From the NCBI GenBank assembly GCA_963708135.1, contig OY970192.1, positions 5,088,001 through 5,152,000 of the forward strand: a stretch of DNA of 64,000 nt, written 5' to 3'. Under the pieces are notes generated by a model. It was not told the origin of the DNA. It did not search any database and was given only the letters and a program-made list of their open reading frames with translations. Both the position numbers and the translations under genes were made by a program. This document shows, in pieces, positions 16,143 to 42,304 of the stretch (positions are counted from its first letter, which is position 1; each line of letters begins with the position of its first letter). Source of the DNA: an uncultured Gemmatimonadales bacterium. Its GTDB lineage: Bacteria > Gemmatimonadota > Gemmatimonadetes > Longimicrobiales > RSA9.

Positions 16143-17375
16143 GTGGCCAATGCGCTGACGCACAATGTGCTCACCCGCGCCGTGACGGGTGGCGCCGCGG
16201 CGTTCCGCTGCCGTCGAAGGCTGCAACCTGCCGGTGGGCCTGGAGACAAGGTTTTCCCGCCGACCTTCGCCGGGGCGGTGTACGCCATCGAGCAACGGCG
16301 CCTGCCCGACCGGGAGGCGCCCGTCCAGTGCGTGCTCCTCGATAGCGTACAGAGCCAGGCGAACCGGATGGAGCTGGCGCTGCAGGAGGCGGTGGATTCG
16401 GGCCGCTTGCGGTTGCCGCTCGTGGTGGTCAACTTCTCGGAGCACGATCCGACGGGCGACCTCGAGGCGGACGAAGAGGCAGGCCGATTCCTGGACGCCG
16501 TGGGCAGGATCACGACCCTCCAGGCGCCACACCGCCTCGCCGACGCGATTCTGCGCGACAGCGAGCTCGACGGCGTGCGATTCCGCAAATCCGAGAAGGG
16601 GAAGACCCTGAACCGCGCGAGCCTCGCCAATGCGACGCCGCTCTTCGAGCTCTGTCCGACGGCGCTGGTCTTCGGGATGTGGGATTCGACGGGGCCGAAG
16701 GGTGGCCTGGGCCCGAAGTTCGAGCGTGCGGTGGTCTCGGAGATCGTGGGGATCGGCGCGGAGTGGAAGGACGATTACCGGGCCCGCGGCGTGCGCCGTG
16801 ATCCGCTCGAGATCACGAAGAACGTGATGGTCCTCGCCGACGGCGACCGGGCCCTCAGCAAGGTGGCCGAGGGCAAGGAGAAAGGCGTCCGCCCGTCAGA
16901 GATCAATCACTCGAGCGTCCCGTTCGACTCCCCCAACTCCGGCGTAACGATCGAATACGCCGAGCAGGTGACGACGCTCTCCCTGATCGCGCTCCGACGA
17001 CTCCACTTCCCGATCGATGGCGCCACGACGACCGAAGCAGACGCGTCCGCCCGCACCGTTCTGGCCGCGCTCGGCCTGTGCGCCGCCACCCTCGCATTCG
17101 AGAACGGCGTCGGACTGCGCTCACGTTCGCTGTTGTGGCCGGAGGCCTCCATCACGTGGGAGCTCCTGGAGCGGCCGGGGAAGGAACCCCAACGCTATTC
17201 GCTGGCGTCTGCGGATACGCAGCAGCTGCTGGCCGACGCTGTGGCGGCGGCCCGATCCGCCGGCCTGCCCTGGCCGGAGCAGCCGCTCCTGCTCAAGCCG
17301 TCTGCGGCACTGGTCAACCTGGTGCGCCGCAGCCAGGTCGAGCTCGTCCGCCAGGGCGCGGCGGAGGACGGATAA
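16143..17375 (+). CDS. cas7: Type I-G Cas7 (Csb1/Cas7u)
   Basis: LQPAGGPGDKVFPPTF, LLDSVQSQANRME, APHRLADAILRDS, PTALVFGMWDS, LRSRSLL. Confidence 0.92.
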   Translation: MANALTHNVLTRAVTGGAAAFRCRRRLQPAGGPGDKVFPPTFAGAVYAIEQRRLPDREAPVQCVLLDSVQSQANRMELALQEAVDSGRLRLPLVVVNFSEHDPTGDLEADEEAGRFLDAVGRITTLQAPHRLADAILRDSELDGVRFRKSEKGKTLNRASLANATPLFELCPTALVFGMWDSTGPKGGLGPKFERAVVSEIVGIGAEWKDDYRARGVRRDPLEITKNVMVLADGDRALSKVAEGKEKGVRPSEINHSSVPFDSPNSGVTIEYAEQVTTLSLIALRRLHFPIDGATTTEADASARTVLAALGLCAATLAFENGVGLRSRSLLWPEASITWELLERPGKEPQRYSLASADTQQLLADAVAAARSAGLPWPEQPLLLKPSAALVNLVRRSQVELVRQGAAEDG

Positions 17376-17377
17376 GC

Positions 17378-18955
17378 GTGTTCTCGCTCGGCATCCGCTA
17401 CCTCAATGGCTTCTCCGTCGCGGCCGAGCCGGACTCCTATGAGCGGGCCGAATGGCCGCCCCACCCGGGCCGCGTGTTCATGGCTCTGGCGGCCGCCCAC
17501 TTCGTTACCGGCGGCGACCCGGCCGAACGCGCGGCGCTCGAGTGGCTCGAGGCGCTGGAGGACGCGCCCGCGATCCGGGCGGGCGAGCACCACGAGCGGG
17601 CGGTCGTGATCCAGTACGTGCCGGTGGACGACAAGGCCGGCCCCGCGAAGGCGCTGCTGCAATCCCTACCGCTCACGCGCGACCGGCAGCCGCGCACCTT
17701 CGCGCATGCCGCCCTCGACGACGACCTGGTCTACCTGAGCTGGCCGGGCGCCGAGCCGCCCGCGCGCGTGTTGGGCGCGCTCGAGACACTCTGCTCCAAG
17801 GTCACCCGCATCGGCCATTCGTCATCGCTGGTGCAGATGTGGATCGCCGATGAGGACGAGGCTGGTGAGCCGAACTGGGTGCCGGATGATTCGCGCTCCG
17901 CCCTGCACCTGCGCACTGCCGGACCGGGTACGCTCGCCGACCTCGAGCGGTTGTACGACGAAACGGCTGTCGAGACTTACGCCTCGCTCAAGGCGGCGGC
18001 GGAAGACGACACCGACAAGAAAGCTCAGCGCGCCGCGAAGAAGCAGCTGAAGCACGAGTTCGGAAACCGGCCCCCGCAGCAGCTCCGCCCACGACTCTCG
18101 ATCTACCAGGGCTATGCGCGGCCGGCGACGCGCGGCGAGGATGGAGCCGCCTCGGGCACGGTGTTCAATCCACACCCGCTCGTGCTGATGCTCGAACGGG
18201 ACGAGCCGGTGCGGCGCGAGCTCGATCTGCCGTGCACGCTCGCCGTGGTGCAGCGCTTGCGCGACGCCGTCCTCAGCCACAGCAACGGGTTGCCGGACCG
18301 GATCCGGTCGCTGCTCTCCGGCCACGAGCCGGATGGCACGCCGCTCGACGCGCCGCATCTTGCCTTCCTCCCCCTGGCCTTCGTAGGCCACCCACATGCC
18401 GACGGCCGCCTGCTCGGCGTCGGCCTCGTCTTTCCGGCTGATACTGCGCGCGAGGAGCGGCGCCTCGCGCTCCAGGCGGTCGCGCGCGTTCGGCACCTCG
18501 CACTCGGACGGCTGGGCAGGTGGAGGATTGCCGGGGAACGCCGCTCCAGTCCGCCATGGAACCTGCGGCCCGAGGCTTGGACCGCCTTTCCGCGCGGCGC
18601 GACACACTGGTCGACCGTCACGCCGGTCGTCTTCGACCGCCACCCGAAGAACAAGGAGCGCGCCGCGTACGAGCGCGAGGTGGCCGCCATGATCGCGGGC
18701 GGTTGTATGCGTATCGGCCTGCCCCGGCCGCGTGAGGTGATCGTGACGCAGATCTCGGCCCACCCTGGCGTGCCACCCGCGTTCGAGTTCCCACGGCTTC
18801 GGCGCAAGGACGGCAGCGAGCGCCGCCACACGCACGCGATCCTCGTCTTCGATCGACCGGTGTGCGGGCCGGTGCTGATCGGCGCGGGGAGGTACAGGGG
18901 GTATGGGGTGGGGAGGGCGATACAGGCGGCCCCTCAACCCCACTCATCGGGCTGA
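17378..18955 (+). CDS. csb2: Type I-G Csb2 (Cas5/Cas6 fusion)
   Basis: EWPPHPGRVFMALAAA, WSTVTPVVFDRHPK, GPVLIGAGRYRGYG glycine loop. Confidence 0.92.
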   Translation: MFSLGIRYLNGFSVAAEPDSYERAEWPPHPGRVFMALAAAHFVTGGDPAERAALEWLEALEDAPAIRAGEHHERAVVIQYVPVDDKAGPAKALLQSLPLTRDRQPRTFAHAALDDDLVYLSWPGAEPPARVLGALETLCSKVTRIGHSSSLVQMWIADEDEAGEPNWVPDDSRSALHLRTAGPGTLADLERLYDETAVETYASLKAAAEDDTDKKAQRAAKKQLKHEFGNRPPQQLRPRLSIYQGYARPATRGEDGAASGTVFNPHPLVLMLERDEPVRRELDLPCTLAVVQRLRDAVLSHSNGLPDRIRSLLSGHEPDGTPLDAPHLAFLPLAFVGHPHADGRLLGVGLVFPADTAREERRLALQAVARVRHLALGRLGRWRIAGERRSSPPWNLRPEAWTAFPRGATHWSTVTPVVFDRHPKNKERAAYEREVAAMIAGGCMRIGLPRPREVIVTQISAHPGVPPAFEFPRLRRKDGSERRHTHAILVFDRPVCGPVLIGAGRYRGYGVGRAIQAAPQPHSSG

Positions 18956-18961
18956 TAGCCT

Positions 18962-19948
18962 ATGTCTGGACCCGCCGCCACCTGGGACTTCACGGCGCAG
19001 ACCGACCTTTGGACAGGTAGGGTCGTTGGGATCAACGAGCGGAAGGGGAGAGTGGAGCTGCGGGAGAGCATCAAAAACTCGCGGCTGATCCCAACCGGCC
19101 TGCTCGGGTCCATCCGCTGGTGGTTCGAAGTTGTGGTGCGCGGTCTCGGCGGGAACGCATGCGACCCCACCAGGACCAAGTGTCAGGATGGCAAACACTG
19201 CGTCGTCTGCGAGCTGTTCGGTTGCACCGGCTGGGCCCGGAAGTTCCGTTTCCAGGTGCTGGACGGGAATGGAGAGATCCTGGGCTCCGCGATCAAGAAG
19301 GATTCGAAGTTCAAGGTCCGATTCGTACCGCTACGGCCCATCGCCAGCGAGGAAAGGGCGCTGCTCGACCTCACCCTCCGGCTCATCGCCGAGTACGGTG
19401 CGGTCGGTGGGAAGACAGTGCTCAAGCCTTCAGACGAGCCGAACCGCGCGGACGCGCTGCACCATCTCGACTATGGTGTGGTGTCTCTGGACAGCAGCCC
19501 CGGGGTCGCTGTCGGGGACGAGCGAACGCTGAAAGGCTATCTCCGCCAGGTCTCGCAGCGAGCCGCGCACGACACAAGCAATGCCACCTGGGCCTCGCTC
19601 GCGAACTTCTGGTGCGTGAACGGCAGGTACTTGACGCGCGCGAAGGCTGATGCGAGCACATTCAACAGGGTTTTGGGCCGCCAGGAACCCAAGCAGCAAG
19701 CGCAGACGCTTGCGAGCAACGGAAACGCAGATCGCTGGCTCGCCGGCTCACAGCAGGAGAGCAAGAAGGTCTTCAGCTTCAAGAATCCGCCCCGGACGTT
19801 CGGCTTCGTGCTGCCGGGGACGATTTCACTCGACGAGATGAAGACGCGGCTGCAGCCAGCCTGGTCGGACCTCCGGGATGGCGAGTTCCTCACCGGCGCG
19901 GATGTCCTGTCGAAGCTCGTTCCCGCGGCATCGGAGCCCGCTCGATGA
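18962..19948 (+). CDS. cmr1: Type III RAMP Cmr1-like
   Basis: TDLWTG, TGLLGSIRWWFEVVVRGLGG, CxxCELFGCTGWARKFRF, YGAVGGK. Confidence 0.8.
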   Translation: MSGPAATWDFTAQTDLWTGRVVGINERKGRVELRESIKNSRLIPTGLLGSIRWWFEVVVRGLGGNACDPTRTKCQDGKHCVVCELFGCTGWARKFRFQVLDGNGEILGSAIKKDSKFKVRFVPLRPIASEERALLDLTLRLIAEYGAVGGKTVLKPSDEPNRADALHHLDYGVVSLDSSPGVAVGDERTLKGYLRQVSQRAAHDTSNATWASLANFWCVNGRYLTRAKADASTFNRVLGRQEPKQQAQTLASNGNADRWLAGSQQESKKVFSFKNPPRTFGFVLPGTISLDEMKTRLQPAWSDLRDGEFLTGADVLSKLVPAASEPAR

Positions 19949-20859
19949 CCTTCGATCACTACGCCGCCTTGGCGGACCAGCGGACGTGCCCGCGCTCAGT
20001 GTCGAAGCCGGGCGGGTTCGCGTCCGGGTTCGTGGACGGCTGCACCGTATGGTCGGGAACGGAAGCGGAGAAGAACAACGCGCGGCGTTGCTACCTCAAA
20101 CATCTGGATGGCGCCGCTTCGCTCGCGCCCCCCCCGGAGCTGAAGCTCGCTTCCGATTTCACCGCGCTCCCCGCCCCGGGCTGGATCGGGATCGAGGTCG
20201 ACTTCAAGCTCGAAACGCCGTGGTATTCCAGGGATGACCGGCGCTTCCACGTTTTGGACAACCCGGTGCGTAAGGACCGCGTCTTCGGCGTGCCCTTCAT
20301 GGCGGCGGCGAGCTGGAAGGGACTCCTCCGCTGGGCCTGCAGGATGCGTGCGGGTCTGCTCGAGCACCTGGCGTCGCAGGGCGGCAAGCTGGCCGGGTGG
20401 GACGAGCCCGAGTGGATCGTGCACCTGCTCGGCAACGAGAAGGGTGAAGGCGAGTCGTTCCAGCGTGGTGCGTTGGCGTTTTACCCGACGTGGTTCGACC
20501 GGCTCGGCTTTGAGGTCATCAACCCGCACAGCCGCCGGACGCGGGCGGGCACGCAGCCCATCCACTACGAGGTCGTACCGCCGGGCGCGACCGGCGTCCT
20601 GCAGCTACTGTACGCACCGTTCGTCGGCCGAACCGCCCAACCTGCCGGTCACGGGCTGATTGATCTGATCGGCTCCATCGAGGACCTGCTCGAAACGTAC
20701 GGCATCTCGGCCAAGCGCACGGCAGGTTGGGGCACGGCGACCGCCACCGCGTGGAAAGCGTTCCGGGTTGGAGAGCCCGGAATCCAAGCGGAGAACGCGT
20801 CGGACCTCGCGCGGCAATTGGAGCCCTGGCTGGAATCAACGGAGCGCGGCTATGGCTGA
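19945..20859 (+). CDS. cmr6: Type III RAMP Cmr6-like
   Basis: PWYSRDD..F..LDNPVRKDRVFGVP, SWKGLLR, EVINPHSR, YGISAKRTAGWG. Confidence 0.8.
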   Translation: MTFDHYAALADQRTCPRSVSKPGGFASGFVDGCTVWSGTEAEKNNARRCYLKHLDGAASLAPPPELKLASDFTALPAPGWIGIEVDFKLETPWYSRDDRRFHVLDNPVRKDRVFGVPFMAAASWKGLLRWACRMRAGLLEHLASQGGKLAGWDEPEWIVHLLGNEKGEGESFQRGALAFYPTWFDRLGFEVINPHSRRTRAGTQPIHYEVVPPGATGVLQLLYAPFVGRTAQPAGHGLIDLIGSIEDLLETYGISAKRTAGWGTATATAWKAFRVGEPGIQAENASDLARQLEPWLESTERGYG

Positions 20860-23581
20860 GTTTGCGCCCGCCGCGACACTCCGCGACCACCGCTCGCTGC
20901 TCTTGTCCATGGAGGCTGTGGGGTGGCTGCACATGACCGGCAAGTGCCGCCTGGCGTTCCTGCGCGAGCACGGCGGACAGGGGTCGGGCTACGACGACCT
21001 CCGCTGGTTCGAGAACGAGAGCCCGCCGTTCCCGTGGGACGAACTGCTGGGCTGGCTCAGGACGCGGTACGCGAACGCAAACGGCACTGCGCTCCCGTGG
21101 CCGGGCACGCTCACCGGTTTCCTGACTCGGCACCGGGGTCGGAACGCGGGACTCCTAGGTCTGCTGCAGGCGGGCCATGGCATTGCCTCCGGCATCGAGA
21201 AGAACATGCCTGCCGCGGCAGCGAAATATCTCCAGCAGGATGCCACGCACATGTGGCTCTCCTCGGCCTTCGGACGCCCGGTGCGCAATCTGCTCGCGGA
21301 TCCGCCCGGGTCGTTGAGCCAGGCAGGCTGGGCGCGGTTGCTCGAGGAGATGCAGCGCATCCTACGAGACCTCCATCAGCTCGGCTCCGCATCCGCCACG
21401 GATCTCGGCTCGTGGTCAACCTGGCGCGAAGATGCCATCGGCGCCGGGAGCGTCCTCCGGCACGCGTTCGGCTCCACGCTCGCGGAAACCCGCCTCCCGA
21501 ACAATGAGGTCACGCTCTGGGATCAGTCCTACGTCGCCGCGGCGCTGTTCAAGAGCGCCCTGGCCAGTGCCCTGCTCGACGGTAGGTCCTTCCCCTGGAA
21601 TGACGCGGCAATCAAGAGCCAAGTCCGCTGGCGGCTGCTGACGGTCGGGATCGGAGCGGATCACTTCGAAGCGCGGGCCGTGCGCATCGGCGACTGGACT
21701 GGGGCACGGCTGGCGCTCGACCGCTTCTTCGGAGGCGTGCGACGACTCGTCGAAGTCGACCTGGCGGTGGGCTCGTTGCTCTACGCCGACGGCGGCGTAC
21801 TCGTGTTCTCGTTTCCTGGCGAGCGCACTGATGGCGCTGGCGCTGTGGATGCATCCGGGTGGACGGATTGGCTGCAGGAGGCCGTGGACCAGTCCGCGCG
21901 CGGGCTCGCGCTCGAGCTGCCGCCGTATGTGCGCCTGACCGAATCGACGCGCTCGCTGGTCCCGATGACGCGGGAGATCGCGAACGCGCGAAGCGTTCTC
22001 ACCATTCCCGTGCACCGCGCGTGGGACGTCACCGGATCCGGCGAGACCGGCCACGTGTGTCCCGTGTGCCTCGTGCGCCTGAACGGCGCGCCCACCGACA
22101 AGCAGAAGCCGTGCGCCACCTGCCGCGAGCGCCGAACCCACCGGCTCGATGCCTGGCTCGGGGGCGAGCAAGGGGACGACACGATCTGGATCAGCGAGGT
22201 GGCGGACCAGAACGACCGTCTCGCCCTCCTTACGCTGAGTCTCAATATTGAGCCGTGGCTGGACGGCAGTCGGCTGGATGCGCTGCGTACCCAGGCAGTG
22301 TCCGAATGGCGCCGTCACAACCCGACGCTCGGAGGGAGCTCCAACCCGATTGATTCCGCTAAGCCGTTTGCAAGCCTCGCTGCATACATACAGGGGACCC
22401 TCGGAAGCTTCGACGCGAACAATCCGGTGCTCAGGAGTCTGCAGGAAGGCTATCAGCACGACACCGGCTGGGAGACGTTCTTCCAGAAGGTGGTCGAGGA
22501 CCGCGCGGACGCGCCTCTCTGGAACTCCCTGGATGACCATGGCAGGGCCCGCTGGCTCCTGCATCAGCTCTTCTGCAAGCTCGCCTCTCCTGGTCGCGTT
22601 CACCGCTTCTGGCGGCAGGCGGAGGGCTTCTTCGCCAACCTGCTGGCCGAATTCCGGCAACTAGCAGCGGCGGACGCGAACCGCTGCCGCGTGCGGCGGC
22701 TCGTGCTGACGCCCGGCGCAGACGGCGACCTCTCCGTGTGGCGAGACCGCGAGGTCTACAACGGCCGGGTCGGCGAAGCGCCGCTCAGCCTCCTCTACCG
22801 TGGCCAGAGCCAAGACTTCCTCACGGTCTGCAACCTGGCGCGCCTGCTGCGTGCGGAGGAGGACGGCGAGGCGCTGGTCCGGCGCTCGCAGGAAGGGATC
22901 GAGCTCCGCGGCGGCGACAGCGACCTGCCGGTCAGGTTCCGGATCGCGAGTGTGGAGCCCGCAGATGGCCGAGCCGGCGTCTACCATCCAGTCATCCCCC
23001 TGGAACTGAGCCCGTTGCGCTTCCGGGTGCTGCTTCCGCTCTCCGCAGCGTCGGCCTGCGTCGAGTGCGCGATCGGCATCTGGAACGACGAGATGGCCCG
23101 CGTCTGGGACCGTCTCCCCCTCCGCGCCGGCATCGTTGCCTTTCCACGCACGGTGCCGTTCCAGGCGGTGATCGAGGCTGCCCGCTCCCTCGAGCATGCT
23201 CTGGAAGAGCAGCCGGCGGAGGAGACGTGGCGCGTCACCGAGCGTGACGCCCGCGACGGGATCGTCGCGTTCCGACTCGTTCGTCGCGACGGCGGATCCG
23301 AGCTCCGCTCGATGCCGGTCACGTTACCGGACGGCCGGCGCGATGTGTTCTACCCGTACTGCCGCGTCGAGGATGGGGCAGTGCGCACCGCGCTCGACTT
23401 CCAGCATCCGGACGGCCAGACCTTTCGCCACGCGCTCGACCTGCGCCCTGGCGACGGCATCGTCGTGGCGCCGTCCCGCATCGCCGGTGTCTTTCTCGAC
23501 AGTAGCGCGCGCCGCTTCGACGAGGTGCAGGTGCGCCCGCTGGCGGAGTGGACGCGGATGCGCTGGTGGGCAGAGCCGTGA
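20852..23581 (+). CDS. cas10: Type III-C Cas10 (Csx11), C-terminally truncated
   Basis: AETRLPNNEVTLWDQS, CPVC...CATC zinc motif, IWISEVADQN, ASPGRVHRFW, DLRPGDGI..PSR. Ends abruptly inside cmr4 sequence. Confidence 0.8.
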   Translation: MAEFAPAATLRDHRSLLLSMEAVGWLHMTGKCRLAFLREHGGQGSGYDDLRWFENESPPFPWDELLGWLRTRYANANGTALPWPGTLTGFLTRHRGRNAGLLGLLQAGHGIASGIEKNMPAAAAKYLQQDATHMWLSSAFGRPVRNLLADPPGSLSQAGWARLLEEMQRILRDLHQLGSASATDLGSWSTWREDAIGAGSVLRHAFGSTLAETRLPNNEVTLWDQSYVAAALFKSALASALLDGRSFPWNDAAIKSQVRWRLLTVGIGADHFEARAVRIGDWTGARLALDRFFGGVRRLVEVDLAVGSLLYADGGVLVFSFPGERTDGAGAVDASGWTDWLQEAVDQSARGLALELPPYVRLTESTRSLVPMTREIANARSVLTIPVHRAWDVTGSGETGHVCPVCLVRLNGAPTDKQKPCATCRERRTHRLDAWLGGEQGDDTIWISEVADQNDRLALLTLSLNIEPWLDGSRLDALRTQAVSEWRRHNPTLGGSSNPIDSAKPFASLAAYIQGTLGSFDANNPVLRSLQEGYQHDTGWETFFQKVVEDRADAPLWNSLDDHGRARWLLHQLFCKLASPGRVHRFWRQAEGFFANLLAEFRQLAAADANRCRVRRLVLTPGADGDLSVWRDREVYNGRVGEAPLSLLYRGQSQDFLTVCNLARLLRAEEDGEALVRRSQEGIELRGGDSDLPVRFRIASVEPADGRAGVYHPVIPLELSPLRFRVLLPLSAASACVECAIGIWNDEMARVWDRLPLRAGIVAFPRTVPFQAVIEAARSLEHALEEQPAEETWRVTERDARDGIVAFRLVRRDGGSELRSMPVTLPDGRRDVFYPYCRVEDGAVRTALDFQHPDGQTFRHALDLRPGDGIVVAPSRIAGVFLDSSARRFDEVQVRPLAEWTRMRWWAEP

Positions 23582-24290
23582 CGGCGGCGGACACTGCGGT
23601 GAGCCGGACTGTCCGATCTGCACGGTTTTCGGCTTCGCCCGTGGCAACAGCGGCGGCTTCGCCGGGTTGGCGGCATTCAGCGACGCGCACGTGCTCCTGT
23701 TTCCGGTCGCCACGCGGGAGGGGCCCGTGTGGATCACCTGCCCGGGCGCGCTGCGCGGCCTGAGCGCGCTGAGCGAGCTGCCCGATATCAGCGAGAACGC
23801 AGTCCTCCGCGCTGGCAACGCCACAGGCTCGTTGAACCTCGGCTGGCTCGTCCTCCCCGTGAAAGGCCGGAACGGCGAGTGGGCGAGCGTGGATACCGAG
23901 CTCGGTGCGCTCGGTGTACCGGATCACGTTAAGCGGACCTGGGCGATCATCTCCGACAAGGTCTTCTCGCACGTCGTGAACAGCAATCTGGAGGTCCGCA
24001 CTTCGGTCTCGATCGACCCCGAGACCGGTGCCGCGGAGGGAGGTGCGCTCTTCACCTATGAAGCCCTCCCGCGCGGGACGGTGCTCGTGTGGCAGGTCAC
24101 GTGCCGGCACCCCGGGCATTTCCGGGTCGGAAAGAGCGACGTGAGTGCCGTTGCCGATGCAGGGGTGGTTCATAGCGTCGTCGGCGAAGGGCACGGCTAT
24201 CTCGAATTCCTGGGCATCGGCGGGATGGGCACCCGTGGCATGGGGCGCTTACGGGTCCTGAATGCTGCGGCAGGCGAGGGAGGCACGTGA
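23556..24290 (+). pseudogene. cmr4: Cmr4 RAMP lacking its N-terminus
   Basis: CAG...HCGEPDCPICTVFGF, DAHVLLFPV, NLEVRTSVSIDPETGAAEGGALFTYEALPRG, GIGGMGTRGMGR; no start codon or N-terminal motifs. Confidence 0.8.
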
Positions 24291-24655
24291 TGGAGAACCT
24301 GGACCTCAGGTGCGCGGAGCTCGGCGCGACGCTCGCGGGTGCCCACGGCGTGGAGGAGAAAACCCTGACGGACGCGCTGGCGGTTCTTGAGGAGCAGGGC
24401 GTCTATGCCTTCTTCCTCTACCTGAGCGCGCCCGGAAGAAATGGCGGAGGTGAGGTGTCCCGAGCGTGCCATAAGTTCCTGCAGCAGGAGCCCAGCGACA
24501 AGGCGCTCCTGCCTGCGGGCGGCGATGTCCTCAGGAGCGTCCGCGAATCGCTCGCGAACGAGCTCGACAACCTGCTCCTCGCGAGGGACCTGTTGCGCCA
24601 GGCTCTGGTCTACGGCCGCTATCACGCCAAGGCCGAATCCCGGGGTATCCGGTGA
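24287..24655 (+). CDS. cmr5: Type III small subunit Cmr5 (Cas11)
   Basis: NLDLRCA, ALAVLEEQGVYAFFLYL, LLRQALVYGRYHAKA; position between cmr4 and cmr3. Confidence 0.75.
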   Translation: MMENLDLRCAELGATLAGAHGVEEKTLTDALAVLEEQGVYAFFLYLSAPGRNGGGEVSRACHKFLQQEPSDKALLPAGGDVLRSVRESLANELDNLLLARDLLRQALVYGRYHAKAESRGIR

Positions 24656-25530
24656 TTTGGAAGCTGTACCGTTGGGTTTGGCAGCTCGAAGGGCCCCTGT
24701 ACGTGGGTATGGCGCCCGCTGGCGTGCTGAACCGGTGTCGGCTCTACGCGCCTGCCCGTGCGGTGTGGGGCGCGCTCACCTCTGAGCTAGCCCGCACAAC
24801 GGCGACGGGTTTTCCCGAATACGAGGGCGTTGGCAGAATGCTTCAGGAGAGCGCACGCTTCACGTACCTCTTTCCGGCCGAGCCGGTCGAGGGTGATTGG
24901 CGAGGCTGGCTTCCACACTATGCCACCGAACACGGGCTCGAGTGGAGACGCGAGGACCTGCCGAATGACCCCGGCAAGAGAGTGCCGGACCGCACGTTTC
25001 GCCGCCGGCTGCTCGACACCCGTGCAGGGACCGCAATCGAGCCGGAGACAGACACTGCCGCCGATGGCAGTTTGAGAGAAACGGAGTGCTTGGGCGCCAT
25101 GTGGCGGCGGAACGGAGCCGGAGGGGAGCCGTCTCCGGCTGCGCTCGTGGGCTATGTCTTTCTGCGTGACGGCGATGGTCGGTTGCGCGTTGAAGCGATC
25201 GATACACTCTTCCTGGGTGGAGACACGCGCTACGGGCTTGGGCGGGTTCGCCTGGTTGAGTGCGACGTGGCGAATGGGGTTTTCGGAAATGAGACGAGGG
25301 TCTCAGCGGGCACACCCGCGATCGTCAGCGCGGCCGTCCTGGCGCACGCTTCGAGCGGTGAGGATCTCATTGGTGCGTTGGAGCGGGTGGCAGGATGGGA
25401 TCGACTGAAGGCGAGCAGGGTCACTCATTTGAGTAGCTCGGTCGCGTGGACGCCTGGTTCCAGTTGTCGCCACGGCGAACGGAGAATTTGGCGGGTGCGG
25501 GGTGACGGAATCTGGCAGCCAGGACAGTAG
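24652..25530 (+). CDS. cmr3: Type III Cas5-group RAMP Cmr3
   Basis: PLYVG, RLYAPARAVWGALT, TAIEPETDTAADGSLRETE, LGGDTRYGLG. Confidence 0.75.
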   Translation: MIWKLYRWVWQLEGPLYVGMAPAGVLNRCRLYAPARAVWGALTSELARTTATGFPEYEGVGRMLQESARFTYLFPAEPVEGDWRGWLPHYATEHGLEWRREDLPNDPGKRVPDRTFRRRLLDTRAGTAIEPETDTAADGSLRETECLGAMWRRNGAGGEPSPAALVGYVFLRDGDGRLRVEAIDTLFLGGDTRYGLGRVRLVECDVANGVFGNETRVSAGTPAIVSAAVLAHASSGEDLIGALERVAGWDRLKASRVTHLSSSVAWTPGSSCRHGERRIWRVRGDGIWQPGQ

Positions 25531-25686
25531 GGTTGTACCGTTCGCCTCTCAGACCGTCACGCCCGTCGGTGGACGGCGTACCCGAGTGACGCGCGGTGGT
25601 CAACCGGCACGCCGATCCTCTTCGACCCGCACATACCGGCACACATACACGTCTGAGGGTGATCCGCCAACGTCTTCGAGAATGAC

Positions 25687-26007
25687 ATGATCGACATCGA
25701 CCAACGCGTACCTGAGATCGTACAACGCCTCACCCGCGTCAGCCGGCCGGACCGTATCATCCTGTTCGGCTCGGCCGCCATGGGCAGGATGACGGCGGAC
25801 AGCGACATCGACGTGCTGATCGTGGAGCCGGAGGTCGAGGACGCACGGTCGGAGAGCCGGCGGCTCCGGGAGGCACTGGCAGGCCTCGGCATCGCGATCG
25901 ACGTAATCGTGATCAGCACGGAGCGCTTCGAGGAGACGAAGGGCGTGATTGGAGGAATCGCGTACCCGGCGAACAAATACGGGAAGGTCATCTATGAAGC
26001 CGCCTGA
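25687..26007 (+). CDS. Minimal nucleotidyltransferase (MNT)
   Basis: IILFGSAAMG...DSDIDVLIV. Confidence 0.9.
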   Translation: MIDIDQRVPEIVQRLTRVSRPDRIILFGSAAMGRMTADSDIDVLIVEPEVEDARSESRRLREALAGLGIAIDVIVISTERFEETKGVIGGIAYPANKYGKVIYEAA

Positions 26008-26425
26008 AGATGTCAGGCGCGAGTTCGTCCGGGATTGGATCGACAAGGCCGAACGGGATCTCGGCGCCGCTCGGCACCTGCTTTCCGGGATGGAATGGCT
26101 GGCGGCGGGCGCGGCGTTTCACGCGCAGCAAGCGGCCGAAAAATACCTGAAGGGCTTTCTGGTCTGGCATCAGGTCGAGTTCCCGAAGACCCACGACATC
26201 GCGCGCCTGCTCGAGCTGATCGGAGCGGTAGATCGGCAGCTTGCGGCATCGCTGCCCAATGCCACAAGTCTGAGCGCGTACGGAGTGGATTACCGGTATC
26301 CGGGTGATTACCCCGAGGTGTCAGCGGCGCAGGCCCGCCAGTGTGTCGAAGTCGCGAGCGCCGTTCGGGAAAAGGTGCTTGGTCAGCTCCCACGCCTAAC
26401 GGCTGAGGAGGAAGAAAGCCGGTGA
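25994..26425 (+). CDS. HEPN domain protein (MNT-HEPN pair)
   Basis: WIDKAERDL, FHAQQAAEKYLKG, PKTHDI, YRYPG. Confidence 0.9.
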   Translation: MKPPEDVRREFVRDWIDKAERDLGAARHLLSGMEWLAAGAAFHAQQAAEKYLKGFLVWHQVEFPKTHDIARLLELIGAVDRQLAASLPNATSLSAYGVDYRYPGDYPEVSAAQARQCVEVASAVREKVLGQLPRLTAEEEESR

Positions 26426-29361
26426 CCCCACTCCCCTCCTTCCCCGACTTCTTCCGCGCCCTCTGGACCTACGACCCGTTCCCGTGGCAGTCCATGCTCG
26501 CGGAACGCGTTGCCGCCGGCGCATGGCCGGCCGCGCTCGACCTGCCCACGGCGAGCGGCAAGACGGCGTGCATCGAGATCGCGCTCTACGCGCTCGCGGC
26601 GCAGGCGGAGCAGCCGACCGCCGAGCGCACGGCGCCGCGGCGCGTCTGGTTCGTGGTGGACCGGCGCATCGTCGTGGACGAGGCGTTCGATCGCGCGACG
26701 CGGCTCGCCGGGAAGCTGGCGGACGCCACGAGCGGGTCCCTGAAGAGCGTCGCCGATCGGCTGCGGGAGGTTGCAGGAACGGAGCGGCCCGTGGCGGTGG
26801 CGCGGCTTCGGGGCGGGGTGTTCCGCGACGACGGATGGGCGCGGCTGCCGTCGCAGCCGGCGATCATCACGTCGACCGTGGACCAGCTCGGCTCGCGGCT
26901 CCTCTTCCGCGGTTACGGCCACGGGCTGCTCGCGGCGCCGATCTACGCCGGCCTGGCCGCGAACGACAGCCTGATTCTGCTCGACGAGGCGCACTGCTCG
27001 GTGCCGTTCCTCCAGACGCTGCGCGCGGTCGAGCGCTTCCGGGGCCCGGACTGGGCCGAGGCCCCGCTGGTCACGCCGTTCGCCTTCGCGATCCTGTCCG
27101 CGACGCCTCCCCCGGACATCCCGGCCGAGTCGGTCTTCCCCGGCGCGGATCGCGCTGCGGCGCTGGATCACGACGTGCTGCGCCAGCGGCTCCGCGCCTC
27201 CAAGCCTGCCGAGCTCGTCGTTGTGAAGGCGAAGAGAGGCGCCGCCGCGGATCCGTTGATCGCCGCGGCGATCGAGCGTGCGCTGGGCCACGTCGGGGAG
27301 GGAAAGCGCCGGATCGCGGTGATGGTGAACCGCGTCCGCACCGCCCGCGATGTCGCCGAGGGGCTCGAGGACACGCTCGGCGGGGATGCCCATGTTGTAC
27401 TCCTCACCGGCCGCCTACGTCCCTTCGACCGCGATGCGCTCGTCGAACGGTGGACCCCGTTCCTGAAGGCGGACAGGCCGGAATCGGCGGCCAAGCCGAT
27501 CGTGCTGGTCTCGACCCAGTGCCTCGAGGTCGGTGCGGACTTCAGCTTCGACGCGCTGGTCACCGAAGCCGCGAGTCTGGATGCGCTGCGGCAGCGCTTC
27601 GGCCGTCTCGACCGGATGGGCACGGCCGGAACTTCGCCCGCCAGCATCCTCGTGCGTGAGCGAGATGCGGAACCCGGGAAGGCGGAGCCGGACCCGATCT
27701 ACGGCGCCGCGATCGCGAACACGTGGACGCTGCTCGAGGCGCACGCGGTCGATGGCAGAGTCGACTTCGGAGTCGAGCCGCTGGAGGCGATGCTCGGCGG
27801 CCTCGAGGACCTGGGCCCCTGCCTCGCGCCCGCGCCTGAGGCGCCGGTGCTGCTGCCGGCGCACCTCGACCTGCTGTGCCAGACCGCGCCGGCCCCGGTG
27901 CCCGAACCGGACGTGCAGCTCTTCCTGCACGGGAAGGATCGCGGGGCGCCGGAGGTTCAGGTCACCTGGCGCGCGGACCTGGACCCGGAGCAGCCGGCGA
28001 GCGTCTGGATCGAGACCGTCGCCCTGTGTCCTCCCGTCAGCGGCGAGATGCTGTCGGTGCCGCTGTACCAGCTTCGCGCTTCCCTGGGCCACGGCGAAAC
28101 AGCGCCGGACACTGGCGACGTCGAGGGTGTTCCGGCCCCGGATGAAGCCGCAGCCCGGGGCGCCCGACCGTTCCTCCTCTGGCGCGGGCGCGGCCGTGAT
28201 CGGTCCCGTCGGACGCGTGATACGCGGCTGATCCGTCCCGGGGATGTCGTCGTCATTCCGGGATCGTACGGCGTGGGCACGCTCGGGCAGCCGCCCGTCA
28301 AGGAAGGAATCGGGCCGGACGGAATCGACCTCTGGGAGCGCGTCCTGGGGCCGGCGGGCCAGCGGTCCGCCATGCGTCTCACGCGTGCGACGCTCGCGCG
28401 CTGGTTGGGCTGGCGGCCGGTGGCGGACCTGCTCGTCGCGGTCGAGGATCCCGAGCCGGACCGGGATGAGATCGCAGCGCGAATCGCCGCGGTGGTCGCT
28501 GACCAGCCCGGGGGCGGCGAGGATGTTGCCGCGGCCCCCCCGCAATGGTGGCGCGAGCTGCTGCGGACCGTCCTGGCCGGCCGCCTGGAGGTGCACCCCG
28601 GGGGTGGGATCATCCTGTTCGCCCGCGCCAGGCCGAAACGCACCGAGGAGCCCGACCTCTTCGCGGATGACGATGACCTTGCGTCGGCGACCGGGGTCGA
28701 GGTACCGCATGACCTCCACGCCGATCTCGTCGCGCGGACCGCCGGAAGAACCGCGCGGCTGTGTCTCCCGGAAGCGCACGTTGCCGCACTGGAAAGGGCC
28801 GCGGACTGGCACGACACGGGCAAGCTCGACGAGCGTTTCCAGGTCATGCTCCACCAGGGAGATGAGCTGGCTGCGCTGCAGGCAACGGCCCCCCTCGCCA
28901 AGTCCGCGTGGATTCCCACATCTCCGGCGCACCGCCGGGAGATCCGGGAAGCCGCGCGGCTCCCCGACGGTTTTCGGCACGAGATGCTGTCCTTGGACCT
29001 CGCAGACCGGTTCGCGCCAGGGCTCGAGGGTGAGCACACGACGGACCTGTTGCTGCACCTCGTCGCGAGTCACCACGGACATGCCCGTCCCTTCGCGCCG
29101 GTCGTCTCGGACCCTGATCCGCCTCCGGTGATGGGCACGCGGCGCGATGTCGCCTTCGAGCTGAAGGCCGCCGAGCGCCGCGATCTGCCGCCCGCGCACC
29201 GGCTGGACTCCGGCGTGGCAGACCGGTTCTGGCGCCTCGTTCGGCAGCACGGGTGGTGGGGCCTCGCCTATCTCGAAGCCATTCTCCGGCTGAGCGATTG
29301 GTACGCGAGCGAGTTCGTTCCTGCTGAGCTGAAGGCTTCGGGCGAGGAGGAGGCCGCGTGA
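26422..29361 (+). CDS. cas3: Type I-G Cas3 helicase with C-terminal HD nuclease
   Basis: PFPWQ, PTASGKT, VVDRR, DEAH, QRFGRLDR, HDTGK, FRHE, HHG, GWWGLAYLEAILRLSD. Confidence 0.95.
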   Translation: MTPLPSFPDFFRALWTYDPFPWQSMLAERVAAGAWPAALDLPTASGKTACIEIALYALAAQAEQPTAERTAPRRVWFVVDRRIVVDEAFDRATRLAGKLADATSGSLKSVADRLREVAGTERPVAVARLRGGVFRDDGWARLPSQPAIITSTVDQLGSRLLFRGYGHGLLAAPIYAGLAANDSLILLDEAHCSVPFLQTLRAVERFRGPDWAEAPLVTPFAFAILSATPPPDIPAESVFPGADRAAALDHDVLRQRLRASKPAELVVVKAKRGAAADPLIAAAIERALGHVGEGKRRIAVMVNRVRTARDVAEGLEDTLGGDAHVVLLTGRLRPFDRDALVERWTPFLKADRPESAAKPIVLVSTQCLEVGADFSFDALVTEAASLDALRQRFGRLDRMGTAGTSPASILVRERDAEPGKAEPDPIYGAAIANTWTLLEAHAVDGRVDFGVEPLEAMLGGLEDLGPCLAPAPEAPVLLPAHLDLLCQTAPAPVPEPDVQLFLHGKDRGAPEVQVTWRADLDPEQPASVWIETVALCPPVSGEMLSVPLYQLRASLGHGETAPDTGDVEGVPAPDEAAARGARPFLLWRGRGRDRSRRTRDTRLIRPGDVVVIPGSYGVGTLGQPPVKEGIGPDGIDLWERVLGPAGQRSAMRLTRATLARWLGWRPVADLLVAVEDPEPDRDEIAARIAAVVADQPGGGEDVAAAPPQWWRELLRTVLAGRLEVHPGGGIILFARARPKRTEEPDLFADDDDLASATGVEVPHDLHADLVARTAGRTARLCLPEAHVAALERAADWHDTGKLDERFQVMLHQGDELAALQATAPLAKSAWIPTSPAHRREIREAARLPDGFRHEMLSLDLADRFAPGLEGEHTTDLLLHLVASHHGHARPFAPVVSDPDPPPVMGTRRDVAFELKAAERRDLPPAHRLDSGVADRFWRLVRQHGWWGLAYLEAILRLSDWYASEFVPAELKASGEEEAA

Positions 29362-30503
29362 CCGGCTCCGGCCAACCGACCACTGCGGTCGAGCTGACGG
29401 CGCTCGACGGCGCCAATCCTCTCGCCTTTCTCGCGGCGCTCGGCACGCTGGTCGCGCTGCATGCCGCGGGCGAGCGCAATGCGCGCCTGCGCTGGCGCGC
29501 GGGCGCGAGGTGGACGCCGGTCATCGATGCCGCGCCGTCGAGCGACCCGGACGCGTTCTGCGCAATCGTCGCGCATGCCCTCGAAGGACGGGAGGTGCCG
29601 GTGGACGCGGCCGCGGCCGCCGTGGATGCGGGCCGGCGCCACTCCCACGCGCGAAAGGCCCTCAAGGCCAAGCGGCAGGAGATCAAGGCCCGCGGGCTGA
29701 GAGGTGCGGAGCGTCGTACGGCGATGGAAAACGAGCTCACGCCGCTCGACCGCGAGGTCGCGCTGGCCCGTGCGGTGTGGCTGGAGGCGCTGCGCGCGGC
29801 CGTGGCGCGCCCCGAGCTCGCCGTGGGCGACACGATAAAGTGCACGCCCGAGGAATACCGCCGGTACGCGGATGCGGTCCTCGAGGGCTCCTCCGCGGCC
29901 GACCGCGACCCGATCGATCTGCTCGCCGCGTTCGGCACGGACGCGTGCCTCGCTCGAAAGGGCGACCTCATGGAGCCGACGCCGTTTCAGTTCATCACGG
30001 GCTCGGGCCACCAGTTCTTTCTGAGGACTGTCCGCGACCTCCTGAACGAGGTCTGCGCGGCTCGTGTCAGGGCCGCCCTCTTCGAGCCATGGACCTACTC
30101 CGACGAGAAGCTGTCAATGCGCTGGGATCCCGTGGAGGACCGGCGCTACGCGCTGTCGGACCGCAACCCTTCGGACGAGGCAGCCCGTACCGTCTGGATG
30201 GCGAACCTGCTGGCGTACAGCGGACTCGCCCTGTTCACATGCGCACCGGGCAGAGGCACGCTGCGCACCGTCGGATGGCGCCAAGTCGATGGCGACCCGA
30301 TCCTGACCTGGCCGCTCTGGCAATTCGCGGCGCGGCCGGAAACCGTCCGCTCACTTCTCGCCCTACACGAACTGTCTGAGGAACCGCCCGACCACACTGC
30401 GCTCCGGCAGCGTGGCGTCACGGCGGTGTTCCGCTCGCGACGAATCGAGGTCGGGCACGGGGCGAACATCAAGCTGAACTTCAGCCCGGCGCGCGCGGTG
30501 TAG
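29358..30503 (+). CDS. cas8: Type I-G large subunit, short Cas8g (Cas8u2-like)
   Basis: LDGANPLAFLAALG, F.TGSGHQFFL, SMRWDPVEDRRYAL, LTWPLW; follows cas3. Confidence 0.75.
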   Translation: MTGSGQPTTAVELTALDGANPLAFLAALGTLVALHAAGERNARLRWRAGARWTPVIDAAPSSDPDAFCAIVAHALEGREVPVDAAAAAVDAGRRHSHARKALKAKRQEIKARGLRGAERRTAMENELTPLDREVALARAVWLEALRAAVARPELAVGDTIKCTPEEYRRYADAVLEGSSAADRDPIDLLAAFGTDACLARKGDLMEPTPFQFITGSGHQFFLRTVRDLLNEVCAARVRAALFEPWTYSDEKLSMRWDPVEDRRYALSDRNPSDEAARTVWMANLLAYSGLALFTCAPGRGTLRTVGWRQVDGDPILTWPLWQFAARPETVRSLLALHELSEEPPDHTALRQRGVTAVFRSRRIEVGHGANIKLNFSPARAV

Positions 30504-30730
30504 GGTTGTTGGACCGCTGCCTTGAACCAGGAGGCCCGCGAAGCGGCGGCGCCTGACGGCGCTCCGGCCTTCGTCCACACCTCTCGACAGAGAAAGCGAT
30601 CAGCCGCTCGCGCGCCACCAAGGTCTACCTCGCCCATCCAGAACGCCGAGGTGTCTTTCCGTGGTCTCGCACGAACGGCTATCTTGCTGAGTTGCGAACC
30701 GCGCGGGCCGAGAGCCAGATGGAGGCATGC

Positions 30731-31766: not shown

Positions 31767-31887
31767 GGCGGCGGGTTTCTTCCGCGCGTGATGGCGCTCC
31801 CCTCCCTCCCCGCTTCCGGGCAAGAATCGCGCGCGCCAGCCAGTTGACATGCGGATAGCATGCTGACATGTGTTGCGCACGCCAAAG

Positions 31888-32129
31888 ATGATCCAGGTCC
31901 GCAACGTCCCCGACGCGTTGCACCGCAGGCTCAAGACCCGGCCCGCCCTGGCCGGGATGTCGCTCTCGGACTACTTGCTGGCGGAGCTCGAGCGGGCGGC
32001 GGCGCGGCTCACCGCCGCGGCCCAGCCCAGCGGCGATGATATGCGTGCGCGGTTGGTCCTCGCGGGCCCCCGGTCGAGCCGGACACGCCGGTGGTCGAAG
32101 CGGTGCGGGCAGAGCGCGACGCGCGTTGA
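31888..32129 (+). pseudogene. Degenerate copy of the FitA-like antitoxin (11277..11507)
   Basis: Same N-terminus; first ATG mutated to ACG; insertion and frameshift in the 3' half. Confidence 0.75.
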
Positions 32130-32503
32130 TCGTGGTCGACGCCTCTGCGGTGCTCGAGCCGCTGCTCGGGACGCGGGCGGTCAACGCGGTGGCGGCCCGG
32201 CTGCTCTCGGGCGAGGCGTTGCGCGCGCCGCACCTGCTGGATGCGGAGGTCGCGCAGGTGGTGCGGCGCTACTGGCGGGCGGGCCAGCTCGGCGCCGCGC
32301 GCGCCGCCGAGGCGCTGGCCGATCTCGCCGACCTCCACATCGAGCGGCATCCACACGGCGTCCTCCTGACGCGCACCTATGCCCTTGGCGACGACGTCAC
32401 CGCCTACGTCGCGCTCGCCGAGGCGCTGGACGCGCCGCTGCTGACGCCAAACCGGCGCCTGGCCGGCGCGGCCGGACACGGGGCGCGGGTGGAGGTGGTG
32501 TGA
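32126..32503 (+). pseudogene. Degenerate copy of vapC (11504..11893)
   Basis: Near-identical, but TAYDAAYV is shortened to TAYV, losing a conserved Asp. Confidence 0.75.
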
Positions 32504-32556
32504 AGGGGCGGCGCGCGGCGCGCCCGAAGCCTTGGTGGGCAGGTGCCGCGGCTCAC

Positions 32557-32578
32557 CGTCGGTGGGTCCTTTTACATT
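32557..32578 (+). promoter_or_regulatory. Second copy of the PafBC-type promoter (1 mismatch)
   Basis: CGTCGG TGGGTCCTTT TA CAT T within a diverged duplicate of 15707-16140. Confidence 0.55.
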
Positions 32579-33007
32579 GTAGAGCATGCACGATGAACCG
32601 TCGGCGGGCGGCGGCGTGGCCGCGGCGAGGTCGCCATCGATTCTCTTGCGCGGATCCGGAACCGAGACTACCCTGGGCTGTGGCGCCGGCGTTCGGAACA
32701 ACCGTCCGCGCCGCGCCCCCCCGGCCGCGATTCCGCTCCGACCCCCTCCGGACGAGTCGCTGGCCGCAACCGTCGGTCGCGCCAGCAGTGGCGCGGCCGG
32801 CGCGTGTCCGCCGCCTACGGTCCGAGCAAGAGTTCCGGGGGTGTAGGTCCGACGATGGACTGTCTCGAGCATTCCGGCGCGAACAGTGGTACGGCGTACG
32901 GGCACCGGTTGGCGGAACGCCAGCGGGAGGCGGTCCACGATTTTCGCGCGGGAACGTCGATCGCTTGATCGCCGGGATTTGTTGACCCCTGGAGAAGGAG
33001 AGAACCA

Positions 33008-38520: not shown

Positions 38521-38967
38521 GGACGCGCGAGAAGCCGAAGAAGAACCAGGCGCTGGGAGACGTGAAGACGCGTGGCTTGCGCGCGCTGTGGAAGGAACAA
38601 TGCGCCGAGCTCGTGGCGCAACCGTTCGACGTGCTTACGCCGGTGGCTGGGACGTTCAACTTTGACGCCCGCGGCGCATGGACCGGCATTGACGCGGGGT
38701 ACTCGCCGAACGATCAGAAACACGGCGTCGCCACCTCGCCGACGGTCGAAATACTTGCCGCTATCGGCCTCGAGAACGCCCGCCCGGATGAGTTCAAGCC
38801 GCGCGAGGTGCGGTACGGAGTATGGGGTGTGCTCCTCCCGCCCGCCCTTGCCCGGCCCGCGCTTGGCGGAGCAAGCCTGCCCATCCCCATCCGACGATTC
38901 CGCTTCACACTCGATCGGCCGAGCCAGTACAGCAAGGTGGTCACATTCGCACAGGAGGACTGAACCG

Positions 38968-41706: not shown

Positions 41707-41940
41707 AGGCGCGAGATTCACCCATTTGCGTGGCTCGGTCGGGTGCACGCCTGGTTGCAGATGTCGCTAGGGCGAACGGAGAACTTGGCGGGACGAGATG
41801 ACGGGATCTGGTAGTTCGACGGGTTTTACCCGTCCGTCCCAGACGTCACCCGGATCGCTTGACAGCGTAGCCCCGTGCCACGCACTCGTCGAACGGCACA
41901 TATACATTTGAGGCTGATCCGGGATGTCCTCGCAAACAGC

Positions 41941-42264: not shown

Positions 42265-42304
42265 GGCTGTCAGGCGCGAGTTCGTCCCGGATTGCATCGA
42301 CAAC

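Follow-up and report, generated by a model that had tools for sequence, protein, structure and literature searches.

A truncated type III-C cassette nested in a type I-G CRISPR effector operon of a Gemmatimonadales bacterium

We analysed a 64,000-nucleotide stretch of DNA (the window; contig OY970192.1 of assembly GCA_963708135.1, positions 5,088,001 to 5,152,000) from an uncultured Gemmatimonadales bacterium, in which a block of type III-C CRISPR effector genes stands in the middle of a type I-G effector operon. A preliminary description of this DNA had read the arrangement as a working hybrid, in which the crRNA-processing protein Csb2 would feed a DNA-targeting and an RNA-targeting system alike. 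The gene identities and the nesting are real, and a comparable arrangement recurs in a second locus of the same class, but a single deletion has truncated two of the six III-C genes, cas10c and cmr4. We think it probable that a mobile III-C cassette, together with a pair of MNT and HEPN genes, became lodged at the junction between csb2 and cas3g of the I-G operon, that its intact form is fed by Csb2, and that it is now decaying in this genome. The cassette seen here is more likely a decaying relic than part of a working hybrid.

The III-C cassette within the type I-G operon

Twelve genes on the + strand follow the order cas7g-csb2-[cmr1-cmr6-cas10c/csx11-cmr4-cmr5-cmr3]-MNT-HEPN-cas3g-cas8g, at the positions first proposed for them. 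Because the window has a G+C content of about 70%, spurious frames fill lists of open reading frames (ORFs), and the gene calls were settled by family models (NCBIfam, Pfam, PADLOC), not by such lists. The four outer genes encode a type I-G effector, and all four products score above curated cut-offs. They comprise cas7g (csb1) of I-G variant 'A' (16143..17375; TIGR02570 63.4 bits, cut-off 38; PF09617 3.3e-55; PADLOC Cas7g 6.9e-52); a full-length csb2, a Cas5-Cas6 fusion with a GTG start 2 bp past the cas7g stop (17378..18955; TIGR02165 274 bits, cut-off 45, model positions 1-487 of 492); a full-length cas3g, also of variant 'A' (26422..29361; TIGR02621 708 bits, cut-off 400, model positions 1-854 of 854); and cas8g, of the 'Cas3-extension' family (29358..30503; NF049934 239 bits, cut-off 65; PADLOC Cas8g 5.6e-75). 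The other I-G components, a Cas4-Cas1 fusion, Cas2 and an array, are all present in the window.

The cassette opens with cmr1 (18962..19948; TIGR01894 43.5 bits, cut-off 28.65; RAMPs 1.5e-16), which aligns over nearly its full length to homologs from related loci. It continues with cmr6 (19945..20859; PADLOC Cmr6 7e-64), a C-terminally truncated cas10c/csx11 of 909 aa (20852..23581; PADLOC PDLC01314 Cas10c 'CAS-III-C' 1.6e-94), a remnant of cmr4 (23556..24290), cmr5, which encodes a Cas11 of III-C type (24287..24655; PADLOC Cmr5 'CAS-III-C; effector_SS' 2.3e-28), and cmr3 (24652..25530; PADLOC Cmr3 5.4e-69). Type III-C loci have the gene order cmr1-cmr6-cas10-cmr4-cmr5-cmr3, and the cassette has the same order. 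Its Cas10 belongs to the Csx11/Cas10c family by PADLOC, whose Cas10c and Cmr5 models both carry the CAS-III-C label, so that the assignment of the block to type III-C holds. The cassette has no cas6, cas1/cas2 or array of its own. Behind it lie a gene for an MNT-type nucleotidyltransferase (25687..26007; PF01909 5.4e-10; MntA 33.2 bits, under the cut-off of 60) and one for a HEPN protein (25949..26425; PF05168 2e-24), whose true start is uncertain and whose stop overlaps the cas3g start.

The genes are as closely packed as had been reported. Csb2 and cmr1 are indeed separated by 6 bp, most junctions overlap by 4-8 bp, cas7g and csb2 are 2 bp apart, and the sole real gap in the operon is one of 156 bp between cmr3 and the MNT gene. 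We found no terminator-like site on the + strand within 16143-30503; a sigma-70 promoter scan of 15400-31200 returned 0 sites, although such a scan is uninformative at 70% G+C. Co-transcription of the whole block would be consistent with this packing.

The cassette and the MNT-HEPN pair (18962-26425, 7.5 kb) fill the csb2|cas3g junction. We searched 400 other genomes of the phylum with the window cas8g and obtained ten matches, nine of which were compared as related I-G loci, the tenth genome being that of locus L062, considered below. The run cas7g-csb2-cas3g-cas8g is uninterrupted in six of the nine (L106-L111), mostly with cas4/cas1 and cas2 following, and in L107, from the same family as the window genome, csb2 lies 42 bp from cas3g. 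Two loci (L104, L105) have the canonical order cas3g-cas8g-cas7g-csb2, and one is partial. A tblastn search upstream of 16143 found no cas3 or cas8 remnant. Because most of the relatives are uninterrupted at this junction and no such remnant was found upstream, we infer that the cassette and the MNT-HEPN pair were inserted there, and the word "nested" is thus justified. Direct or inverted repeats were found at neither border of the inserted block when each was searched alone.

Nor is the arrangement unique to this assembly. In the composite locus L062/L113/L114, from the same class as the window genome, the same junction is filled by cargo that includes an intact III-C cassette, in the order cas7g (75%)-csb2 (60%)-second I-G set-III-C-DEAH helicase-cas3g (60%)-cas8g (54%)-cas4/cas1-cas2-array. 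This locus shares with the window a variant-A cas7g-csb2, then a III-C-bearing cargo, then cas3g-cas8g. It differs in having an extra, complete I-G set (cas3g', cas8g2, cas7g', csb2') ahead of the cassette, a DEAH helicase in place of MNT-HEPN, and whole cas10c and cmr4 genes. Its array of 77 repeats is of the same family as that of the window and ends CATTGAAGC.

A deletion across cas10c and cmr4

Both cas10c and cmr4 had been listed among the genes of the block, and neither is whole. Owing to a deletion of ~0.5 kb their products fall short of the NCBIfam cut-offs (TIGR02682, Csx11, 222.6 against 248.95; TIGR02580, Cmr4, 75.2 against 87), with the Cmr4 match starting only at position 64 of the 283-position model. 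Cas10c has lost its last ~97 residues to the deletion, and Cmr4 its first ~66. The junction lies at 23553..23565; there the homology to Cas10c extends as far as 23563 and that to Cmr4 begins at 23556, so that the two homology blocks overlap by 8 nt. Past the junction the cas10c frame continues for five codons before it meets a stop; the remnant of cmr4, in a different frame, has no start codon of its own at this point.

Comparison with homologs gives the same picture. Related Cas10c proteins, 56-66% identical, are 978-1038 aa long, and in an alignment of 22 Cas10c sequences that of the window alone stops, about 95 residues early. The spacing from cas10c to cmr4 homology is 52 nt in the window as against 529-656 nt (median 583) in all 62 of the 62 related loci that hold both blocks, and full-length Cmr4 homologs begin ~66-72 residues ahead of the first homologous point in the window frame. 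With the full-length proteins of L013 as queries against the genome, only Cas10c residues 10-899 (window 20879-23563) and Cmr4 from residue 67 onward (from 23556) were matched, and nothing significant was found elsewhere in the genome for the missing parts. A full-length Cas10c homolog used in the same way was matched over residues 1-903 of 996.

The lost segments can be placed on known structures. Residues 14-60 of L013 Cmr4 align to residues 10-55 of Pyrococcus furiosus Cmr4 (chain 4wnz_A), with Asp31 falling on Asp26, which we take to be the catalytic residue of the P. furiosus protein; this entire stretch, with the D26-equivalent Asp, is absent from the window. A profile built from the 22 Cas10c sequences had 0 matches among Protein Data Bank sequences at E <= 1, and Cas10 chains were found later by a structural search with the model of a full-length homolog (9arw_A: Z 15.6, root-mean-square deviation 3.5, 298 residues aligned; 4h4k_C: Z 15.2, 3.8 and 285). 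In this model, residues 1-400 mostly have a predicted local distance difference test score (pLDDT) below 50; the tail that is missing from the window protein forms a helical bundle with pLDDT of about 85-90 and falls in the range aligned to the C-terminal part of the solved Cas10 chains.

This genome therefore encodes neither a complete Cmr4 with its predicted catalytic Asp nor a complete Cas10 large subunit. Since the Cas10c C-terminal domain and the Cmr4 N-terminus with its predicted catalytic Asp are deleted, the III-C complex is very probably non-functional here. The remainder of the cassette, namely cmr1, cmr6, cmr5, cmr3 and the first 904 codons of cas10c, is open and aligns end to end with homologs.

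Cassette relatives, crRNA supply and alternative readings

Scanned with the Cas10c alignment, one genome per species yielded 80 cassette loci, which come from many phyla. All six genes are found in the same order in 53, and the other 27 miss at least one match, most of them at contig ends. Homologs are 48-66% identical across many phyla; no Cas10c gene was found, with the query used, in the 40 nearest relatives of the window genome. This distribution fits horizontal spread of the cassette. In a survey of the flanks for + strand ORFs of at least 90 aa within 4.5 kb, 14 of 45 loci had cas genes upstream and 9 of 44 had them downstream (L062 is counted among these nine because of tblastn matches beyond 4.5 kb). 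Type I cas genes stand on both sides in 7 of the 30 loci that have both flanks: I-B genes in L027 and L072 (cas6b-cassette-cas7b-cas5b), I-C genes in L063 and L074 (cas5c-cas8c-cas7c-cassette-cas4, with cas1c and cas2 next in L063), I-A/B-like genes in L030, and I-G genes in L062 and L075. The neighbours of the remaining loci are BREX, Hma, restriction-modification or DISARM genes. In several loci cmr1 closely follows the end of a Cas6-type gene, which is cas6b in L027, L067 and L072 and csb2 in L062, L047 and the window. We compared the repeat ends of nine arrays in eight of the 80 loci, those with a 23-45-nt consensus; they read ATTGAAAC, ACTGAAAG/T or ATTGAAGC, apart from two, both in L089, that end CTCGAAAC.

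Other features of these relatives deserve mention. The Csb2-like ORF of L047 (6793-7830, 345 aa, 37 bp before cmr1) holds only the C-terminal, Cas6-like part of Csb2 (model positions 198-429 of 431). Upstream of this ORF is a WYL-domain gene, and no cas7g was found; the ORF may be a standalone Cas6g serving the cassette or another remnant. In seven of the 80 loci, MNT-HEPN pairs like that of the window occur beside the cassette. They lie immediately upstream of it in L014 and L015, immediately downstream, and twice over, in L017, and ~3 kb downstream in L065, L082, L085 and L088; in the window such genes follow both copies of the cassette (25687-26425, 41941-42310), the second being described below. 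The pair could be an addiction module or an accessory that travels with the cassette. In L015 the ORF upstream (4920-7451) matches positions 74-623 of a PglX model and the one downstream (15222-17216) positions 659-953 of the BREX-1 PglX model. The cassette and its MNT-HEPN pair thus seem to sit inside a pglX gene, a hint that the cassette inserts as a unit.

The crRNAs on which such a cassette would draw can be considered from the repeat. The 36-nt repeat of the window is predicted to fold, as RNA, into an 8-bp hairpin whose loop is UUCG; CCUC comes next, and after it the 8-nt AUUGAAGC. The DNA repeat ends ATTGAAGC, and the arrays of related I-G loci end ...GGCCTCATTGAAGC. According to PMC9638904, Csb2 of Thioalkalivibrio sulfidiphilus alone cuts a 36-nt repeat 4 nt 3' of the hairpin base to leave a canonical 8-nt 5' handle, and its C-terminal Cas6 domain is active by itself. 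The earlier claim of an 8-nt handle made by Csb2 agrees with this account and with the geometry of the window repeat: because the repeat has an 8-bp hairpin, 4 nt and then AUUGAAGC, such a handle is the product to be expected from Csb2 cleavage here.

A further claim, that there is no standalone cas6 and only one repeat type, is true of the window and untrue of the genome. All 67 repeats of the window type in the genome lie within the window, and the Cas6 models TIGR01877 and PF01881 found no match in the whole genome (97.65% complete). A second cas1, however, led to a complete type I-E locus at ~3.644-3.663 Mb (L012, C1:3644148-3663000), with cas3e, cse1, cas7e, cas5e, a casE/Cas6e match, cas1e and an array of 141 copies of a different, 28-nt repeat. 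Between this array and cas1e stands a transposase gene of the IS630 family. A Cas6 and an array thus do exist elsewhere in the genome, but nothing ties them to the III-C genes.

For the intact form of the system, as found in L062/L113/L114, we propose a scheme of four steps. The I-G adaptation module (cas4/cas1, cas2) would fill the single array. The Cas6 domain of Csb2 would then cut the repeat 4 nt past the hairpin to give crRNAs with the 8-nt tag AUUGAAGC, and the same crRNAs would load both the I-G Cascade, for DNA targeting with Cas3g, and a III-C Cmr-like complex with a Cmr4 backbone, for RNA targeting. No cyclic-oligoadenylate signalling would follow, because a GGDD motif is missing from the Cas10c clade. 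The case for crRNA sharing is drawn from synteny and from how the repeat ends; such sharing appears plausible ancestrally and is probably defunct in this genome.

The Cas10c clade itself has unusual features. None of the 22 aligned sequences has a conserved GGDD/GGDE motif (0/22), so that the cyclase site is absent, as in type III-C, and none has a conserved His-Asp dipeptide (0/22). In PMC11229360, III-C loci are described as lacking cyclase sites and known ancillary effectors, and half of III-C Cas10s as carrying an HD domain. The Csx11-type Cas10c is also unusually conserved for a Cas protein, with a mean column identity of 65% across phyla and more than 150 invariant columns, among them a four-Cys cluster and many Trp and Arg.

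How far the window still supports a working system has to be weighed against other readings. A co-transcribed I-G/III-C hybrid at work in this genome, with Csb2-made crRNAs arming DNA- and RNA-targeting complexes, would suit the tight packing, the lack of internal terminator-like sites on the + strand, the open and full-length cmr1, cmr6, cmr5 and cmr3, and a repeat end and hairpin fit for Csb2 processing. We nevertheless regard this as unlikely, since the C-terminal domain of Cas10c is gone, Cmr4 is without ~66 N-terminal residues, the D26-aligned Asp among them, and has no start codon at the junction, and the missing parts were not found elsewhere in the genome. It is quite improbable that the deletion is an artefact of assembly and the real cas10c-cmr4 junction intact. 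The deletion is known from the assembly alone, and all other cassette genes are intact; yet the genome is one 5.45-Mb contig, the junction is clean, with homology blocks that overlap by 8 nt, and further, independent lesions are found in the same locus (insertion sequences of three families, a frameshift and a cmr3 stub).

The nesting, too, could be read differently, with cas7g-csb2 as the tail of one canonical I-G operon, cas3g-cas8g as the head of the next, and the cassette merely between the two. The canonical order in two of the nine related loci (L104, L105) and in the variant-B remnant of the window speaks for such a juxtaposition, as does a csb2 fragment downstream of cas8g. On the other side, six of the nine relatives, including L107 of the same family, have cas7g-csb2 directly before cas3g-cas8g-(cas4/1), tblastn found no cas3/cas8 remnant upstream of 16143, and the HEPN stop overlaps the cas3g start. 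Moreover, the downstream csb2 fragment belongs to the head of a second copy of the locus, because copies of the sequences that precede cas7g in the first copy precede this fragment. We therefore give juxtaposition little credence. Finally, the III-C genes might be served not by Csb2 and the I-G array but by the distant type I-E system with its Cas6e and 141-repeat array. That system is complete, with its casE/Cas6e match, but it lies 1.4 Mb away; the arrays adjacent to cassettes end ATTGAAAC, ACTGAAAG/T or ATTGAAGC (the L089 pair CTCGAAAC), unlike the I-E repeat; and csb2 stands immediately ahead of the cassette in three independent cases (window, L062, L047). Such a supply is very improbable.

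We return to the reading that we prefer, a mobile cassette lodged at the csb2|cas3g junction, fed by Csb2 when intact and decaying here. Several observations weigh against it. I-G nesting is rare, as I-G genes flank the cassette on both sides in only two other loci of the 80 (L062, L075) in the + strand, 4.5-kb survey. The genome holds a second crRNA source in its type I-E system with Cas6e. The deletion, as noted, is seen in a single assembly, and the intact frames of the remaining cassette genes would mean either that it is recent or that residual function has been selected. Csb2 also remains on the 3' hairpin in vitro, with a dissociation constant of 43 nM as given in PMC9638904, and because it stays bound, hand-over of its crRNAs to a type III complex is not self-evident.

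More speculatively, the cassette might be a 'guest' module that crosses phyla, favours type I effector operons, often settles behind a crRNA-making gene, and lives off the array, adaptation and processing of its host. Because its Cas10 is without GGDD and His-Asp and yet is 48-66% identical, with more than 150 invariant columns, it would then point to an undescribed, strongly constrained activity or to purely RNA-directed defence. We hold this wider view only tentatively and consider it doubtful as a whole.

The surrounding locus and its relation to known systems

The operon does not lie beside its array. Between cas8g and cas4/cas1-cas2 with the array there are ~12 kb, taken up by degraded cas genes, insertion sequences and toxin-antitoxin genes. 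Behind cas8g come a HicB-like ORF (30692-30961), named from its translation and with no NCBIfam family found, and a second MNT-HEPN pair of toxin-antitoxin type (31019-31766). A second copy of the locus then starts at 31843..33028 (+; self-blastn) with a vapBC-like pair and the region that precedes cas7g in the first copy. It continues with a C-terminal remnant of csb2, variant A' (33008..34030, +; TIGR02165 model positions 199-492; by tblastn 71% identical to csb2 residues 204-516), and a cas3g of variant 'B' (34078..36928, +; TIGR02621 520 bits from model position 74). This cas3g, 31-33% identical to variant A, is frameshifted between 34182 and 34211: tblastn returns two pieces in different frames, with the N-terminal helicase motif in another frame.

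Further along are an IS630-family transposase gene (37373..38461, -; NF033545 268.7 bits); cas8g2 of GSU0052 type, of which only a C-terminal fragment was seen (38650..38963, +; TIGR04106 model positions 174-272 of 282, 66.5 bits, under the cut-off of 125); an IS1182-family transposase gene (39103..40473, +; NF033551 381 bits); and a C-terminal csb2 remnant of variant B (40492..41706, +; TIGR02165 model positions 168-490, 156.6 bits). A second III-C stub (41681..42310, +; tblastn and self-comparison) consists of the last ~37 codons of cmr3, an MNT copy with 85% amino-acid identity and a HEPN fragment. The adaptation genes follow, the cas4g/cas1g fusion (42546..44399, +; NF049935 703 bits, cut-off 560) and cas2 (44407..44697, +; TIGR01573 41 bits, cut-off 24.5). 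The array, located by repeat search on the + strand, is in three pieces, of 40 repeats (44886..47758), 17 repeats (49130..50336) and 10 repeats (51705..52399); one IS4-family transposase gene (47808..48977, -; NF033592 267.5 bits) splits the first two, and another (50396..51565, -; NF033592 263.3 bits) stands before the third.

Self-comparison ties the two halves together. The segment 11241-11907 recurs at 31843-32517 (85%), 15708-16163 at 32551-33028 (79%), 18003-18909 at 33087-33993, and 25383-26046 at 41681-42303 (79% nucleotide identity), and the four blocks keep the same order in both copies at 77-85% identity. We suggest that an L062-like composite is present here twice in tandem, that the two copies have diverged, and that their losses are complementary. 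Copy 1 would have kept the variant-A effector genes and the damaged cassette, and copy 2 the adaptation genes and array, together with a variant-B csb2 followed by the stub of a deleted cassette. Deletions, insertion sequences and the frameshift have gutted the second copy. Still open are all four I-G effector genes of variant A, cas4/cas1, cas2 and the array, which may yet confer I-G immunity.

We considered whether the two C-terminal csb2 pieces could be purpose-built standalone Cas6 genes and rejected this, since by DNA homology the first is a deletion remnant, and the second abuts the IS1182 transposase gene. Both keep the whole Cas6-like part of the model and may retain activity, by analogy with the domain that works alone in vitro according to PMC9638904.

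The window holds further elements outside the operon. The first pair of recurring blocks, 11241-11907 and 31843-32517, corresponds to two VapBC-like copies, and toxin-antitoxin-type genes are abundant in the locus as a whole. A 790-aa ORF close behind the array (53126-55498) has a C-terminal subtilisin/mycosin-like protease domain; its best match is a type VII secretion system mycosin (107.9 bits, under the cut-off of 278.75). Three 100% identical 2.03-kb elements lie at 369-2400, 2396-4429 and 57745-59776 (reverse), the first two in direct tandem; each has a 619-aa ORF with no NCBIfam match. The element is probably an insertion sequence that is still active and belongs to a family not covered by models. 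A tandem repeat at 4682-5001 (61-bp unit, 5.2 copies, 97% matches) has no spacers and hence is not a CRISPR array.

These findings bear on how the locus should be annotated and on where III-C systems might be studied. The window locus is best recorded as a composite in decay that contains pseudogenes, and not as a hybrid that functions. Type III-C is, to our knowledge, the least studied type III subtype, and the intact I-G-nested relative L062/L113/L114, with its large array, offers a concrete system in which to ask how crRNAs reach a type III complex when the Cas5-Cas6 fusion that makes them remains on the 3' hairpin, what role is played by a Cas10 with neither a GGDD motif nor a conserved His-Asp dipeptide, and whether such cassettes are cooperative partners or hitch-hikers.

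Among known systems, type III-C, with its Cmr-like effector and Csx11/Cas10c, has the same six genes in the same order as the window, no GGDD, and no cas6, cas1/cas2 or array of its own. The window differs in that a single deletion has truncated its cas10c and cmr4 and in that its cassette lies inside a type I-G effector operon. Its Cas10c clade also has no conserved His-Asp (0/22), whereas according to PMC11229360 half of III-C Cas10s have an HD domain. The type I-G system of T. sulfidiphilus, as PMC9638904 presents it, shares with the window cas3g with a C-terminal HD, cas8g, cas7g, csb2, the cas4/cas1 fusion and cas2, and likewise has a 36-nt repeat with a hairpin followed by 4 nt and an 8-nt tag. 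In contrast, the order in the window is cas7g-csb2-cas3g-cas8g, as in six of the nine relatives, and not cas3-cas8-cas7-csb2; 7.5 kb of foreign genes occupy the csb2|cas3g junction; and the adaptation genes and array are 12 kb off.

'Hybrid' loci called by CCTyper are handled in PMC11229360. Our literature searches, which were narrow and cannot establish that there is none, found no description of a III-C cassette set within a type I-G operon.

Type III systems without Cas6 or array that use type I crRNAs are established, and a type III-B system reportedly borrows the crRNAs of a co-resident type I-F system in a case attributed to Silas et al. in 2017. As in that case, the type III effector of the window lacks both an array and a Cas6 of its own, and the genome has a compatible type I crRNA source. 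There, however, the two systems occupy separate loci or are neighbours, whereas here the type III genes are intercalated in the type I operon, sharing is predicted from synteny and the repeat, and the type III genes are damaged. Less familiar is the placing of a III-C cassette within a type I effector operon, between two of its genes, an arrangement that recurs across I-B, I-C and I-G.

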